Shown: positions 1 to 5,716, numbered from the stretch's first letter. The stretch is DNA of 16,152 bases from Candidatus Micrarchaeota archaeon (GCA_043805855.1 JAZDHP010000047.1:1-16152), one strand, 5' to 3'. A program made the numbers and translations. Notes: a model not told the origin generated them from the sequence alone.

Positions 1-597
1 CTAATTGGACTATTTGTAATGACTGCAATGTTCGCATTCGCAAGCCAAATTGGCAGAACTCGTTTAATGCCCGGCGCCGACCACGAACAAATGAAAATGC
101 TAGTCGACAACCACGACAAGAAAAAAGCACCCTTCATAGAAGCAACAGGAGCACGAGCAGGAGCACTACTTGGGGATTGTAGGCACGATCCACTTCAATC
201 AATTCTGGGGAAGGAGAAGCTTTATTTAGCCAAACAAAGGGCTAAAGCGACTGGAAAAGGCGAATTGACCGCTAAAGCTACTTTAATTTCATTTGAAAAG
301 CTTTGGAAACGCTTATTTAAAAAGTACCCCAATCTTGTCGAACAACACCCAAACAATTATGAAGCAATTGTTTTGCCAAGGAAAGAAAAAGTTTACACAC
401 TTGGCTACAAGAACGGCAAAACAATACTAAGCAGAATTTATTCACTTAACCGGTATTTTGCTGAAAAAGAAGTTGTTGAATTAGAAGTGCCGACAACCAC
501 TGTAACGCTAACGAGCGACCACAAAATTATAACCACAAAGGGAAGCAAAACCGCGAAACGCGCACGAGTTGGACAAGAGCTAATAACTTTAAGCTAA
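1..597 (+). CDS. lonB: Archaeal Lon protease (LonB), N-terminal part (5'-truncated by window) fused to N-terminal split-intein half
   Basis: Frame is open from base 1 (LIGLFVMTAMFAF, end of the LonB membrane segment). It contains the LonB motif APFIEATGARAGALLGDCRHDPLQ, then switches to intein-like sequence and stops at TAA 595-597. Confidence 0.93.
   Translation, partial: LIGLFVMTAMFAFASQIGRTRLMPGADHEQMKMLVDNHDKKKAPFIEATGARAGALLGDCRHDPLQSILGKEKLYLAKQRAKATGKGELTAKATLISFEKLWKRLFKKYPNLVEQHPNNYEAIVLPRKEKVYTLGYKNGKTILSRIYSLNRYFAEKEVVELEVPTTTVTLTSDHKIITTKGSKTAKRARVGQELITLS
199..594 (+). mobile_element. Split intein, N-terminal half (IntN, 132 aa)
   Basis: Begins with Ser (SILGKEKLYL, block A) right after extein DPLQ. 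Block B TxxH motif TLTSDHKII is present, followed by AKRARVGQELITL, the usual end of the N-splicing domain. Confidence 0.88.
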
Positions 598-598
598 G

Positions 599-818
599 TT
601 CATTTTCCATTTCAGTTTATCAACTCCCTACTTTTGCCCAGTCTTGGCTCGACTTGGTTAATTCGCAAGATCGCTTTTAATGTTTTCCCCACCTAACGGC
701 AGGTCGGCGCAAAGTGCGCCTAAAACAATAAAAGCTCCTTGCTCAGCCAAAAGGCACAGTTCGTTCGAGCCAAAGAACTGGGCTCGAGCGGAGTCGATAA
801 ACTATGGAAAACAATGAA
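599..818 (+). promoter_or_regulatory. Long imperfect inverted repeat (599-652 vs 765-818) able to sequester the endonuclease SD and start codon
   Basis: TTTTCCAT 603-610 pairs with ATGGAAAA 804-811. AGTTTATCAACTCC 614-627 pairs with GGAGTCGATAAACT 790-803 (13/14). GCCCAGTCTTGGCTCGA 636-652 pairs with TCGAGCCAAAGAACTGGGC 765-783 (2 bulged nt). Confidence 0.75.
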
Positions 819-1925
819 AATAAATCACCGGCAGAAATTTCACCGGCAACGACGTGTGTTGAGAAAAGCATAAGCGATCCAAAAGCCAATCCTTCAAATA
901 TGTTAATTCTAACGGCTGAAGATATTTTGAAAACTTATCCAGAATACGAAGCAGAATCAGCAAGAAAGTATTATGAATTTCTAAAATTAAAAGAAGCAAA
1001 TCCAACTTTTGGCTACAAAAAGCTAGCAAAAATGCTCGCATTGCCAATCTCCGCTACTCGCGGCTGGAAGCAATGGAATTGCAAACCAAATCCAATTAAA
1101 GCAATTGAAAAATTAACTCAAATTGGATTACTGCCTCTACATTCGGATAACCAAAAACTACCAGCTATTCTTCGGCTACTGGGCGCTGGATTTACAGATG
1201 GCGGAATTGACTGGAACTTAAATACGTTTCACTTTAACTCAGCTAGAATGGAAAATATTGAAGCATGGAAAAAAGATTTTCTAGAAGTTTTTCCGTACGG
1301 TGAAGAAACCTTGAGCGCCATTATAACTGGATACAACCAAAGCTCAAATGGAATAAGAACAACAGATCGATCAATTGTTCGTTTCTTTGCTGCTCTAGGC
1401 TGTCCAGTTGGAAACAAAACAATGATCAGCTACATATTACCAAAATGTGCGTCACAACTTTCAATAGAACTTAAAATAGCTTTTTTAGATGGATTTTTCA
1501 GCTGCGAAGTAGCAATGCCACAATATCCCATTTGGAGACAAACTAGAAATTTCGTAAACTTTTCGCTCAGTATGAGCAAAATAGAAGAAAAAGAAACTGA
1601 ACATTTAGAGTTCTTAAAAACATTCTGCGAGTTATGCAAGAGCATAGGCATTGAACACACTTCAATAAATCGAGTCCCGCAGAAGAAAATTCACAAGGAT
1701 GGAACACAGCGCAGAAAAGACGGGAAAACATGCGATTCATATAGGATTTTGTTCAGCAACACGTCAGAAAACGTTATGCGCACATACAAGCTAATTCCGC
1801 TAACCTATGCAATTGAAAAGAAACAAAAGTTCAACGAAGCAATAAAAACATACGAGCAACGTCACAGAATACCAATAAACACACCTAGAGAAGAACTTCC
1901 AGAATTGCTCAAACTCTCAAAATAG
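804..1925 (+). CDS. Free-standing intein-type (DOD) LAGLIDADG homing endonuclease with N-terminal HTH
   Basis: HTH-like FGYKKLAKMLALPISATRGW, motif 1 LRLLGAGFTDGGI, intein-endonuclease-like FFAALGCPVGNK, and motif 2 AFLDGFFSCEV. Own ATG with GGAG at 790-793. Confidence 0.85.
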   Translation: MENNENKSPAEISPATTCVEKSISDPKANPSNMLILTAEDILKTYPEYEAESARKYYEFLKLKEANPTFGYKKLAKMLALPISATRGWKQWNCKPNPIKAIEKLTQIGLLPLHSDNQKLPAILRLLGAGFTDGGIDWNLNTFHFNSARMENIEAWKKDFLEVFPYGEETLSAIITGYNQSSNGIRTTDRSIVRFFAALGCPVGNKTMISYILPKCASQLSIELKIAFLDGFFSCEVAMPQYPIWRQTRNFVNFSLSMSKIEEKETEHLEFLKTFCELCKSIGIEHTSINRVPQKKIHKDGTQRRKDGKTCDSYRILFSNTSENVMRTYKLIPLTYAIEKKQKFNEAIKTYEQRHRIPINTPREELPELLKLSK

Positions 1926-1965
1926 TGATTGTTCTTTTAAAAGAATGATCGTTCTTTTAAAAAAA
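1926..1965. repeat. Tandem 20-bp repeat with palindromic core
   Basis: TGATTGTTCTTTTAAAAGAA / TGATCGTTCTTTTAAAAAAA (18/20). The first unit contains the perfect 14-bp palindrome TTCTTTTAAAAGAA (1932-1945). Confidence 0.75.
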
Positions 1966-1982
1966 CAAGGCGTAAACGGCAC

Positions 1983-1991
1983 TTTTTAAAA
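1983..1991 (+). promoter_or_regulatory. Putative TATA box for a leaderless transcript of the Lon C-terminal ORF
   Basis: TTTTTAAAA ends 25 nt upstream of ATG 2016, typical archaeal leaderless spacing. No SD is evident. Confidence 0.5.
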
Positions 1992-2015
1992 CTTCTAACG
2001 CTACAGTTAGTTCAT

Positions 2016-2135
2016 ATGCCGAAAATAACCCGCGAGAAAATCGTGAAGAAGAGAGTATCGAAGAAAAAAGCTTGGTTCTACAATGCAACCACTGCTACAG
2101 GTAACTATTTCGCTAACAAAGTTCTAGTTCACAAC
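2016..2135 (+). mobile_element. Split intein, C-terminal half (IntC, 40 aa)
   Basis: Block [16 protein letters not shown] and block G VLVHN, followed by the +1 Ser nucleophile (TCA 2136-2138). Confidence 0.9.
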
Positions 2136-3380
2136 TCAGGAGGCCTCGGCACACCCGCTCACTTGCGTATTGAAGCTGGCGCAATTCACCGCGCGCACAA
2201 AGGTGTGTTGTTCATTGACGAAATTGCAACGCTAAAGCCACGCGCACAACAAGAACTGCTCACCGCAATGCAGGAGAAGAAATATTCCATAACCGGCCAG
2301 AGTGAAATGAGCTCCGGAGCACTTACAAAAACACAACCTGCGCCGTGCGACTTTGTATTAATAGCTGCAGGCAATTATATGGACGTTAAGCACATGCACC
2401 CAGCGCTGCGCTCTCGTATACGCGGTTACGGTTATGAAATTTACATGGACGAATCAGTACCAGACACGCTTGAAAACCGCACAAAACTAGCGCAGTTCGT
2501 TAGCCAAGAAATTAAAAAAGATGAAAAAATCCCAGCGTTCTCGCGCGAAGCTGTGCTGGAAATTATAAACGAAGCACGCAAGCGCTCAGGGAGAAAAGGT
2601 AAACTTACGCTTAAACTCCGTGAACTCGGCGGACTCATAAGGGCAGCTGGAGATATTGCCAAGCAGGAAAACGCAACGCTTGTAACGCTCGTTCACTTGG
2701 AAGCAGCTAAGAAACTCGCGCAAACGCTAGAGCAGCAAATGGCAACGCAAATTCTCGAACAGCGTAAAGATTACAAGGTATTTTCAACAACCGGTGCCGA
2801 AGTTGGCAAAGTAAACGGTCTCGCAGTAATGGGCGACAGTGGAATTGTTTTACCAATAGTTGCCGAAATCGCGCCGTCGTCAAGCAAAGAAGAAGGCCGC
2901 ATTATAGCAACTGGTAAACTTGGGAGCATTGCGAAGGAAGCGGTTGAAAACGTCTCTGCAATTATCAAGAAACACACTGGCAAAGACATTTCAACTTACG
3001 ACATCCACGTTCAGTTTCTACAGACGTATGAAGGCGTAGAGGGAGACAGTGCGTCGATTAGCGTCGCAACTGCGGTTATCTCCGCGTTAGAGGAAGCGCC
3101 CATTCAGCAAAACATTGCAATGACCGGCTCCATTTCAGTGCGCGGTGAAGTTTTACCAATTGGCGGCGTAACGCAAAAGGCAGAAGCTGCAATAAGCGCC
3201 GGACTGAAAAAGATTATCATTCCAAGGTCTAACTACGATGATCTCGCGTTGACTAGCGCACAGAAGAAGCAAATTGAAATAATTCCAGTTTCAAACCTCG
3301 TTGAAGTACTACAAAGCGCATTGGCACCGTCCAGTAAGAAAAAGCAACTGTTGGAAAAAATCACGAAGGAACTAAAGTGA
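2016..3380 (+). CDS. lonB: C-terminal split-intein half fused to LonB C-terminal part (AAA+ remainder and protease domain)
   Basis: After VLVHN the sequence resumes Lon[24 protein letters not shown], Walker B VLFIDEI, sensor IAAGN, Arg finger [11 protein letters not shown], catalytic Ser in VEGDSAS and Lys in [10 protein letters not shown]. Confidence 0.95.
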
Positions 3381-3425
3381 ACTGTTTTAAAGAGACGACA
3401 AACTTAACTTTATTGGTGATAGACT

Positions 3426-3860
3426 GTGGAAGTAAAAATTTTACACGAATTAAATGGAGTTACAGCCTTAGCTGGCGTTGATTTTGAAACACACAACACG
3501 CACGAATTTAGAAGAGGCAAAAGTAACCTTTCAGTTTCGCATTTAGTGCGCGGAGCTTTCGCAAGCGATAGAAAAATAGATGACATAGCAAGTGAACTAC
3601 ACGCGGAATTAAAGAAAAATCCAAAGCTAGAAGTCGGTTTCGTGCGAGGAGACATGCACGGCATGCCCATGTTTTTCTTAAATAGAACTGGAGATCAGAA
3701 GAAAAATTGGCAAGTGAAATTCCACAAAACCGGCGGCGTCGAAACCATGCACGGCACACACATGTATGTTGAAATCTTGCGCAGATTTAAAACACCTCCA
3801 GCACAAGCACTAGCGTTAAAAGCTAGAGTTGCAAAATTTGAAAGGGAATTACATCAATAA
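3426..3860 (+). CDS. Hypothetical protein
   Basis: 144-aa ORF with GTG start and SD-like GGTGAT at 3415-3420. Fills the gap after lonB. No recognisable motif. Confidence 0.7.
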   Translation: MEVKILHELNGVTALAGVDFETHNTHEFRRGKSNLSVSHLVRGAFASDRKIDDIASELHAELKKNPKLEVGFVRGDMHGMPMFFLNRTGDQKKNWQVKFHKTGGVETMHGTHMYVEILRRFKTPPAQALALKARVAKFERELHQ

Positions 3861-3874
3861 AAAAAATTAAGTTA

Positions 3875-4225
3875 ATGGGAATTAATGTGGAACACTTAAA
3901 AACAATTGCGCGGGTTGTTCACGAGAACTTTGGCGGCGTTACTGGCGTTGGCGTTGTAAATAAAACTAATAGACTAACAGGAACGCCGAAAACATTACTT
4001 GTTTTACACACGGAAGTACCAGGAGGACCGCAGCACGTAATTAACACGCACATAGGCCAGCTTTTAGAACCCTATGGATTTCAAGTGAAACTATGGCCTG
4101 AAATAACCGCTGAACGAATGAGAATAGTCGTAGCAAAAGGTAGGCACGCAATAACAATAACAAGTCAACCTACGAGCAAAAGTAGAGCTGGCGCAATAAT
4201 GATCCACCAAATAGGCATGAGCTAA
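3875..4225 (+). CDS. Hypothetical protein (possibly C-terminally truncated, frame continues to 4282)
   Basis: 116-aa ORF co-oriented with neighbours. No known motif. Confidence 0.65.
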   Translation: MGINVEHLKTIARVVHENFGGVTGVGVVNKTNRLTGTPKTLLVLHTEVPGGPQHVINTHIGQLLEPYGFQVKLWPEITAERMRIVVAKGRHAITITSQPTSKSRAGAIMIHQIGMS

Positions 4226-4348
4226 GAAGATGCGAAAAAAGCCGCAATTGCAATGATGCAAGCAGTTAGAAAACCAACTTAGCTCATTCAGTTCGTTACA
4301 GTTAAACAAGTGCCTTTTTTATTCACTAATAACTTATTCACTATAACT

Positions 4349-5716
4349 ATGGAAATAGAACGCATATTTGCTAAAATCGCCAGCGAGGTTTCGCCTTCGC
4401 CGGTAGAACTTGCTGTTGAGAAGAAGTTCGCAGCGAAGGTAATTGCAAATCTGGAGAAATTCTTGCCAAAAAACGCTAAGGTCACTTTTGTTGGAAGCGC
4501 TGCGCGGGATACTGGACTACGCGGCGATCGAGACATTGACCTCTTTGTGGCGTTTCCCCGCGAGATGGACGAAGATAAAATAGTTAAGCTTACTTTCAAC
4601 GCGGCGAAAAAGGCAGTTAAAACAAAATGGGTGACACACTACGCGGAGCACCCTTATTTGCAAACCATCGCTGGAGATTTCCAGGTTGAAGTTATTCCTT
4701 GTTTTCAAGTTGAGCCGCACACTGGGATAAAAAGCGCAGTTGACCGTTCGCCATTGCACATGGAATATTTACAAAAGAAATTAACACAACGTCAGCGTCG
4801 CGATGTGCGCGTGATGAAAAAGTTGTTGAAAGTAAACGGAGTTTACGGCGCTGAAGTTACAATCGGCGGCTTCTCTGGTTTAGTTTGTGAACAGTTGATG
4901 CTGAAATATGGCGACCTTGAAAGTTTATTGCGCGAAGCTACAGAATGGCGCCCTCCGGTTATTGTCGACTATGAAGGTTCGTGGAATAGTGAAACAAAGC
5001 AAGGCAAAACTGCTTTGCTGCAAAAGTTCAAAGACACGGGTTTAATTTTAATTGACGTTATTGACAAGAATAGAAACGCAGCTGCGGCAATTACAAACGA
5101 GAGCCTCGCGAAGTTTATCCTACTTAGCCGTGCGTTTGTCAAGAAACCAAGTTTGGAATTTTTCAAAGAGAAGAAAGTGAAAATTAATGTTTCAAAGATA
5201 AACGCCATGTTGAAGAAACGCGGCACGGTTTTCATAACTATTGAAGTGAAGAAACCAGATTTTGTTGACGATATTATATTCCCGCAGTTTAAGCGCAGCG
5301 AGAAGAACATCGCTCGTGAATTGCAACGCGTTGGGTTCAACGTGATTGGCAGTTGTGACCTTTATGAAAAAGGGCAACTGTTGTTCGAAGTGCAAAACAA
5401 TATGCTACCGGCAGTTAAGCAAATTATTGGCCCACTAGCATGGGATACTGCAAACGTTGCGAAATTCTTAAAGGGCAAAAAGCCACTGCGTGGGCCGTAC
5501 ATTGAAAATGGAAAAATGTGCGTCGACATGAAGCAAAGCAAGCGCGGCGTAATTGAAATGATTAAAGTAATTTTACACCGCAGTGAAACTGGAATAGCTT
5601 CACACTATCAAACTGCTATGAAAAAAGCAAAAGTGCAAATTGTGAAAAAGGTTGACAAGCAAAACGCAACGATATTGCATAACTATCTATTCGCAGAAAT
5701 TGGTTTAAAACTTTAG
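4349..5716 (+). CDS. cca: Archaeal (class I) CCA-adding tRNA nucleotidyltransferase
   Basis: Nucleotidyltransferase motif VGSAARDTGLRGDRDIDLF, plus YAEHPY, SAVDRSPLH and VYGAE...GGFSGLVCE. ATG 4349 is preferred over GTG 4310. Confidence 0.95.
   Translation: MEIERIFAKIASEVSPSPVELAVEKKFAAKVIANLEKFLPKNAKVTFVGSAARDTGLRGDRDIDLFVAFPREMDEDKIVKLTFNAAKKAVKTKWVTHYAEHPYLQTIAGDFQVEVIPCFQVEPHTGIKSAVDRSPLHMEYLQKKLTQRQRRDVRVMKKLLKVNGVYGAEVTIGGFSGLVCEQLMLKYGDLESLLREATEWRPPVIVDYEGSWNSETKQGKTALLQKFKDTGLILIDVIDKNRNAAAAITNESLAKFILLSRAFVKKPSLEFFKEKKVKINVSKINAMLKKRGTVFITIEVKKPDFVDDIIFPQFKRSEKNIARELQRVGFNVIGSCDLYEKGQLLFEVQNNMLPAVKQIIGPLAWDTANVAKFLKGKKPLRGPYIENGKMCVDMKQSKRGVIEMIKVILHRSETGIASHYQTAMKKAKVQIVKKVDKQNATILHNYLFAEIGLKL

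Follow-up and report, generated by a model that had tools for sequence, protein, structure and literature searches.

The closest described counterparts of the locus analysed here are the fractured genes of Dassa, London, Stoddard, Schueler-Furman and Pietrokovski (2009; PMC2677866), in which the first part of a gene joined to an N-terminal intein half (IntN), a free-standing endonuclease gene, and a C-terminal intein half (IntC) joined to the second part of the gene follow one another in one locus. In that paper the endonucleases, all GIY-YIG or Vsr-like, belong to kinds "not known to be present in inteins" and are interpreted as invaders; LAGLIDADG and HNH enzymes are brought up purely as a possibility, as ones that "could fracture genes", and the fractured layout is proposed as an intermediate between contiguous inteins and dispersed split ones. 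For LonB, Novikova et al. (2016; PMC4760082) give 10 inteins, all from Euryarchaeota. Here we describe a fractured layout in lonB, the gene for a membrane-anchored protease, on a contig of 16,152 nucleotides (nt) from Candidatus Micrarchaeota archaeon (GCA_043805855.1, JAZDHP010000047.1), which was analysed over its whole length and is referred to below as the window. We assign a probability of roughly 0.85 to the reading that this lonB is a fractured gene held together by a functional trans-splicing split intein, which arose when a bifunctional Lon intein underwent fission in situ. What the sequence analysis shows directly is the anatomy of the locus, the predicted folds, homology with a contiguous intein, purifying selection and the spread among relatives. 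In the literature searched, which did not extend to subscription journals, a split or fractured Lon intein is nowhere described.

Three open reading frames (ORFs), all on the plus strand, take the place of an uninterrupted lonB. ORF1 (1-597, frame 1, open at its 5′ end) consists of the 3′ end of the LonB N-extein (1-198, the tail of the second membrane helix running to ...RHDPLQ, truncated by the contig start) and of IntN (199-597, with 132 amino acids (aa) in 199-594 followed by a TAA stop at 595-597). Beyond a non-coding spacer of 206 nt with a long hairpin (598-803) lies ORF2 (804-1925, frame 3, 373 aa), which stands free and encodes a putative LAGLIDADG homing endonuclease of the double-motif type, whose helical N-terminal domain was tentatively labelled HTH in the first-pass annotation. 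A second spacer of 90 nt (1926-2015), containing a palindrome with T-runs (1929-1968) and then a TATA-like box (1984-1991), leads to ORF3 (2016-3380, frame 3, 454 aa), which begins with IntC (2016-2135, 40 aa, C-terminus ...VLVHN) and continues into the LonB C-extein (2136-3380), with SGGLGTPAH as its first residues (the Ser being Ser+1), the remainder of the AAA+ module, the LID domain and the Lon_C protease domain. ORF1 and ORF3 are separated by 1418 nt. A first-pass annotation of this DNA had given the same ORFs, frame break and stops, and its coordinates agree with ours base for base; its statement that the pieces are in different frames or separated by stops holds for ORF1, which is in a frame of its own, and for the in-frame stops between ORF2 and ORF3 (TAG 1923, TGA 1926 and TAA 1938), with the correction that ORF2 and ORF3 share a frame.

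The two LonB pieces are complementary. In the NCBIfam LonB model TIGR00764, residues 9-67 of ORF1 correspond to positions 144-196, while ORF3 extends up to position 607 and scores 658 bits against a cut-off of 516.6; it also matches Lon_C and LonB_AAA-LID in Pfam. Once the intein parts are removed, both pieces tile the model, of which positions 1-143 would lie beyond the contig start, and the cut interrupts the AAA+ fold at a point after the membrane anchor and before Walker B. The window is the entire contig C47 of a genome bin of 1.03 Mb in 67 contigs (92% complete), and begins within lonB at about LonB residue 140, so that the assembly lacks Walker A and the greater part of the membrane anchor for this allele. 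An intact second lonB, which the first-pass annotation had named as an observation that would speak against its proposal, was not found elsewhere in the bin; other Lon-related ORFs are present on contigs C62, C21 and C24.

Both intein halves carry the residues of class 1 splicing. IntN opens with Ser1 (199-201) directly after ...DPLQ and contains the tetrapeptide T-S-D-H, a T-x-x-H motif which we take to be block B; IntC has blocks F and G, ends in ...VLVHN ahead of Ser+1, and is strongly basic; cysteine is absent from each. These motifs, Ser1, TxxH and HN followed by S, had been noted at the outset, and alignments of 13 IntN (A1) and 14 IntC sequences from relatives show them to be conserved: Ser or Thr occupies position 1 in 13/13 IntN, T..H (T105, H108) is found in all 12 that reach block B, the 13th being truncated by a contig end, and the terminal Asn and Ser+1 are each present in 14/14. 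IntN further conserves W36, the KYP and YEAIVLP stretches and NR, and YN.TT is invariant in IntC, in which the penultimate His is replaced in four of the 14 sequences (K, S and R in 3/12 split forms, and S in the contiguous intein of relative G022).

When the IntN profile was compared with PDB sequences at expectation values (E) up to 10, all 21 matches were inteins or intein-like domains, the best being the M. jannaschii KlbA intein (E 6e-9). A relative (locus L044) has a contiguous mini-intein of 161 aa at the same lonB site, to which IntN aligns over residues 1-121 and IntC over residues 122-161, with a gap of 0 and an overlap of 0. Its AlphaFold model, built with an IntN-only alignment (A5), has a mean predicted local distance difference test score (pLDDT) of 76.8, and in a Foldseek search the top 44 matches listed are all inteins, with a template modelling (TM) score of about 0.6 to the best-ranked; they include the Pho RadA, Pab PolII, TvoVMA and TFIIB mini-inteins, and at the sequence level, too, the L044 mini-intein matches that of Pho RadA (E 7e-6). 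A combined alignment of the mini-intein with IntN and IntC rows was discarded for folding, as it misplaced the IntN tails. By way of this model, the paired halves of the window are predicted to form a HINT fold.

A second contiguous form connects all three ORFs with a single precursor. In G022, a genome of the same order, one lonB ORF of 1190 aa contains a 497-aa intein at the same junction, and IntN can be aligned to the N-terminal part of this intein (20% identity), ORF2 to its middle (33%) and IntC to its end (41%), indicating that the three ORFs of the window are the pieces of one bifunctional intein. Since the endonuclease of the window is homologous to the domain inside that contiguous intein, fission in place is the simpler reading of how the fractured layout came about.

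The forms expected along such a path can be found among relatives. A comparison of lonB across relatives had been suggested in the first-pass annotation, and empty, contiguous and split forms all occur. Among 40 relatives of the same order, lonB is intein-free in 21 genomes, including the same-genus G002 and G003, and contains a contiguous intein in three (497 aa in G022, 165 aa in G027, and an insertion of similar size in G035, counted by its size). It is split with both halves found in 10, is listed with only an N-half of fitting length in two (G024 and G040), is complex in one (G031), and was not assigned to a state in three (G011, G015 and G038). In seven of the 10 split genomes the halves are unlinked: in G028 a single 241-kb contig carries them on opposite strands, 90 kb from each other; in G029 and G033 the distance is 22 kb and 30 kb, respectively; and in G019, G032, G036 and G037 they are on different contigs, with at least one half far from a contig end in G032, G036 and G037. 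As an observation apart, the intein-free lonB of G014 (locus L019) has one in-frame TAG inside the match, and may be a broken gene, an error or a case of recoding.

Beyond the order, a search for the IntC-LonB junction, made with the IntC alignment because the IntN alignment was not conserved enough, identified relatives in 215 species genomes out of 185,579 searched, with record titles that name Micrarchaeota, Iainarchaeum/Diapherotrites, Woesearchaeota and Nanoarchaeia. The best 80 of these 215 loci, several of which come from the same genomes as the order-level sample, were assigned to layouts with the IntN and endonuclease profiles, and 71 of them are split at the junction. Twenty-three have three ORFs as in the window (three of them with endonuclease remnants only), seven have two ORFs with the endonuclease fused to the N-half, 10 have an endonuclease ORF upstream with IntN not seen (often at the edge of the locus), six have IntN upstream without an endonuclease, and 25 have IntC-LonB alone in the locus; eight more are of contiguous type, and one is without the junction motif. 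The split lonB intein family is widespread in DPANN archaea, and the window is not a singular case. In the two-ORF loci, which carry Woesearchaeota titles (L069, L096, L100, L103, L113, L114 and L119), the LonB N-half, IntN and endonuclease form one ORF, and IntC with the C-half is separate. In another five loci (L050, L062, L082, L097 and L101) the ORF that encodes the LonB C-half contains, past the junction, a region resembling ORF2, which is probably a second intein at another LonB site.

The ORF2 product has two helices with acidic ends, ...GFTDGGID and ...FLDGFFSCEV, presumably representing its two LAGLIDADG motifs, and the residues at their ends, D132 and E235, are invariant in 19/19 homologues, which are 27-41% identical. 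An AlphaFold model based on the alignment of these 19 homologues (pLDDT 86.6, predicted TM score 0.83) yielded 52 Foldseek matches in PDB at E up to 0.001. Those listed have the LAGLIDADG fold and are mostly homing endonucleases, plus a maturase and WhiA, with I-Tsp061I (1e-6), the TliVMA intein and I-DmoI in the lead and PI-SceI and PI-PfuI also present. ORF2 is thus predicted to adopt the LAGLIDADG fold, and the initial identification of a separate endonuclease ORF of this kind between the halves is upheld by both the model and the invariant residues. At the sequence level, Pfam returned no family for ORF2 at E up to 1, and with the same limit the 19-homologue profile had no match among PDB sequences; ORF2 does match NF038162, a model for intein-containing RtcB, over its endonuclease part, with E 5e-19, far under the whole-protein cut-off. 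Residues 1-28 are disordered in the model, and since its confident part begins at M33, where most homologues also begin, the true start may be ATG 900.

All three intein parts are under purifying selection. In comparison with the copy in same-genus G001, which has about 80% protein identity to the window, dN/dS (the ratio of nonsynonymous to synonymous divergence) is 0.14 for IntN, 0.065 for the endonuclease and 0.07 for IntC, next to 0.06-0.07 for the LonB C-part. Together with the unlinked halves in relatives, the promoter-like box of the C-half and the lack of an intact second lonB, this makes functional trans-splicing clearly the best reading of the locus. In a tree of LonB C-parts, which took in 25 of the 41 genomes and could be blurred by co-conversion of exteins, the split state requires six changes, at least three of them forced by well-supported branches. 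The patchy distribution of the cassette on this tree, the empty sites in the same genus and the retention of the catalytic D and E of the endonuclease make it plausible that the cassette homes as a unit. Movement up to the present would likewise fit the empty same-genus sites, the kept endonuclease and the contig breaks that occur within the cassette in three assemblies; alternatively, the cassette may have been lost by conversion from empty alleles.

For association of the halves, splicing and homing we infer the following course from these comparisons. An ancestral bifunctional Lon intein, situated between ...DPLQ and SGGLGTP... in the AAA+ module, would have broken up in place to give a gene for the N-extein with IntN, a LAGLIDADG gene, and a gene for IntC with the C-extein that has its own promoter. 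A membrane-anchored N-half and a soluble C-half would be produced separately, IntN and IntC would pair into a HINT domain, and class 1 splicing (Ser1, TxxH, His-Asn, Ser+1) would ligate the exteins to give full-length LonB. The endonuclease is probably still able to cleave intein-free lonB alleles, and repair would then copy the entire three-gene cassette into the cleaved allele. The further suggestion of the first-pass annotation, a post-translational switch for Lon, finds no support in any result.

When set against described systems, the window resembles the loci of Dassa et al. in the order of its parts, but differs in that its endonuclease is of the LAGLIDADG type and homologous to the intein domain of a relative, whereas theirs are GIY-YIG or Vsr-like, and in that its host is a cellular archaeal chromosome and its host protein LonB. 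Contiguous LonB inteins, both those of Euryarchaeota and those of DPANN relatives, are likewise inserted in the LonB AAA+ module, but are single ORFs with splicing in cis; those of Thermococcales may share this exact site, as the first-pass annotation has it. Split DnaE of cyanobacteria and PolB of Nanoarchaeum equitans also have separately encoded intein halves on an essential enzyme, a dispersed state that has its parallel in the seven relatives with unlinked halves; in contrast to them, the halves in the window are adjacent, are free of cysteine and rely on Ser1 and Ser+1 as nucleophiles, and the endonuclease gene is retained. The NeqN/NeqC structures (5oxx, 5oxz) rank low in the fold search with the L044 mini-intein. 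The fused Aes123 PolB1 split intein (PDB 9hth), one of the cysteine-less split inteins that serve as tools, shares with the putative Lon pair the Ser nucleophiles and the absence of cysteine from either half, but the sequence likeness is weak and partial (E 0.043 over about 40 residues), and the resemblance is mainly one of fold.

The spacers may contribute to how the pieces are expressed. The first of them, 598-803, has a minimum free energy of -77.4, compared with -46.6 ± 4.1 in shuffled sequences (z -7.4; 0/200 shuffles equal), and the 3′ arm of its hairpin stops one base ahead of ATG 804. This hairpin may restrain translation of the endonuclease, or may serve as a terminator or insulator. 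The first-pass annotation had called both spacers structured, which is well borne out for this one and much less so for 1923-2015, where folding is only mildly better than that of shuffles (z -2.4). A search of Rfam with 1-4400 gave no match in 598-803 at E up to 1, and a single chance microRNA match (E 0.99). Two other explanations for 598-803 were rejected: it is not a repeat or miniature inverted-repeat transposable element (MITE), being single-copy in the genome and found in none of the 80 loci, and it cannot be aligned to the spacer of the same-genus relative. Among 16 spacers between IntN and endonuclease that were folded, z was below -4 in five and between -1.5 and +0.5 in 11.

A conserved hairpin of about 110 nt is found in the interval that runs from the IntN stop to the start of the endonuclease in seven other fractured lonB loci (L049:2054-2164, L059:391-506, L061:1767-1871, L090:2089-2199, L092:2041-2151, L093 at about 1320-1430, and L108:1541-1652). 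Its outer stem is formed by AATTTTTTC...GAAAAAATT and its inner stem contains TTAAAC and TTTAAT; RNAalifold gives 29 pairs, 11 of them with compensatory double changes. Rfam had no match to it when tested on L090, and its sequence is absent from the window.

The TATA-like box at 1984-1991 is located about 30 nt upstream of the IntC ATG. Across 62 split loci, a TATA-like hexamer starts at -32 to -27 from the IntC ATG in 39, as compared with 0-6 in any other 6-nt bin, which, going by general knowledge of archaeal promoters, fits a C-half with its own promoter and a leaderless or short-leader mRNA. In several of the Woesearchaeota-titled two-ORF loci the sequence ahead of IntC has a GAGG or GGTGG-like stretch in place of the TATA-like box, and this replacement suggests that they are translated from one operon transcript.

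A second allele is present in the same bin. On the minus strand of contig C28, positions 1-1198 encode a full LonB N-half (TIGR00764 3-196) followed by an IntN that runs off the contig end, and C41:1-1551 encodes the 3′ end of the endonuclease ORF and then, after a single TAG, IntC with the LonB C-half; here the endonuclease and IntC ORFs are in one frame, apart by that TAG and 9 nt. Over the extein overlap, C47 and C28 differ at none of 66 amino-acid residues while their DNA is 89.5% identical, with 20 synonymous differences counted; C47 and C41 are 77% identical in DNA. In the tree of LonB C-parts this allele B (C41) clusters with same-genus G001, apart from the window (98/98 support), and at lonB the bin probably combines two strains or species.

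Public DNA runs provide additional sequence for comparison, in the form of contigs that bear on presence and colinearity only and that leave about 1597-1938 without cover and hence uninformative. Three of them contain small shares (0.06-0.07) of the stretch, and no RNA run was listed among the matches. In one, a 16-kb contig of a relative is colinear with the window over 1-191, 340-1211, 1365-1447 and 1974-3381, and its only insertions or deletions within 340-1211 are a compensated 1-nt pair at 944/947; two further runs contain short contigs at least 99% identical over 183-415, 2887-3037 and 3085-3235.

Several observations weigh against a functional trans-splicing intein. Pfam has no family for ORF1 or ORF2 and no significant Hint or LAGLIDADG match on the window ORFs (Intein_splicing, E 0.43), and the NCBIfam intein_Nterm model (E 0.009) stays under its cut-off; profile searches of the ORFs, which had been proposed as a check, thus fall short with these general models, while the family-specific IntN profile matches only inteins and intein-like domains in PDB. 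Both halves are basic (26 K+R to 12 D+E in IntN, 10 to 1 in IntC), as opposed to the charge-complementary DnaE and gp41-1 pairs treated by Dassa et al. (PMC2677866), and the last 24 residues of the L044 mini-intein model, poorly served by the IntN-only alignment, are of low confidence. The dN/dS values are rough, because dS is saturated (1.2-2.0). Every dataset consists of metagenome bins, the N-extein of the window allele is cut by the contig end, and the sole full N-half in the bin is that of the other allele, so that for this genome the pairing of both halves of one allele in one organism is presumed.

These points leave room for other explanations. The intein halves could act as interaction domains only, with the LonB halves assembled non-covalently, as is reported of a fragmented ribonucleotide reductase assembled by mobile-element domains (PMC3045599), and the replacement of the penultimate IntC His in three of 12 split relatives and in G022 would suit such a role. 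However, residues needed only for the chemistry are kept (Ser/Thr1 in 13/13, T..H in 12/12, Asn and Ser+1 in 14/14), and the cut divides the AAA+ fold itself, past the membrane anchor but ahead of Walker B, which makes this explanation unlikely. We regard it as very unlikely that the window has a decaying intein in a lonB pseudogene for which another Lon-like protein substitutes: DPANN genomes are reduced, and Lon-related ORFs are indeed available on C62, C21 and C24, but the frames of all pieces are open, comparison with a copy of about 80% protein identity gives dN/dS values of 0.06-0.14, none of 66 residues differs from allele B at 89.5% DNA identity, the break is retained in 71 of the best 80 loci, and the C-half alone exceeds the LonB equivalog cut-off.

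An error of assembly or sequencing, or a strain chimera, hiding a gene with one contiguous intein, is suggested by the position of the window start at a contig end within the gene, and by the contigs of both alleles in the bin, and that of G001, breaking in the cassette. Such an artefact would require errors to have produced the change of frame, all four stops and both spacers (206 and 90 nt); allele B has an independent stop between endonuclease and IntC, three ORFs recur in 23 loci of other assemblies, seven relatives have unlinked halves, and the 16-kb contig from another study is colinear over 340-1211. We therefore consider it extremely improbable, and the earlier argument that no single sequencing error could account for the break is strengthened by allele B, the 23 loci and the unlinked halves. 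Finally, ribosomal bypassing or stop read-through might yield a single precursor that splices in cis; bypassing is raised as an alternative for fractured genes by Dassa et al. (PMC2677866), ORF2 and ORF3 share a frame, and allele B has a single TAG there. This is scarcely credible for the window, where ORF1 has a frame of its own and ends 206 nt before ORF2, three stops separate ORF2 from ORF3 and the C-half has its own TATA-like box, and it is impossible for relatives with unlinked halves.

The implications of the layout extend beyond this locus. For the origin of natural split inteins, the one model known to be in print was drawn from phage-like metagenome fragments and invading GIY-YIG or Vsr-like endonucleases; here the LAGLIDADG case that was predicted is seen in a cellular and probably essential protease gene. 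Because the contiguous ancestor form and the dispersed end state both exist in close relatives, the pathway can be tested by comparison and at the bench. A broader proposition, offered tentatively and at slightly less than even odds, is that DPANN lonB harbours the largest natural split-intein family, which would be cysteine-free and would have all stages of its birth coexisting, with a LAGLIDADG intein split in place, a cassette that homes and a hairpin that restrains the endonuclease. The stages would be the empty site, the contiguous bifunctional intein, the two-piece form with the endonuclease fused to IntN, the three-gene cassette, the cassette without endonuclease, and the unlinked halves. 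Cysteine-free split inteins with Ser nucleophiles are sought for protein ligation under oxidising conditions. As to annotation, pipelines may label such LonB genes as truncated or broken, and many DPANN genomes probably make an intact protease.

The remaining genes of the window encode a CCA-adding enzyme, a class II aminoacyl-tRNA synthetase, a Rad50-like ATPase and similar proteins, and this content identifies the window as chromosomal rather than viral, in keeping with the archaeal chromosome context first assigned to it; the public records of same-order relatives are titled Candidatus Micrarchaeota. Another intein is found on contig C59 (12806-15685, minus strand), where RtcB contains an ordinary contiguous one with a LAGLIDADG domain 23% identical to ORF2, indicating that not all inteins of this genome are fractured. 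Between lonB and the CCA-adding enzyme gene, the window has two small ORFs (3426-3860 and 3875-4225; 144 and 116 aa) without a Pfam match. In allele B (C41) the CCA enzyme gene comes directly after lonB, and the two small ORFs therefore represent an insertion or deletion difference between the alleles.

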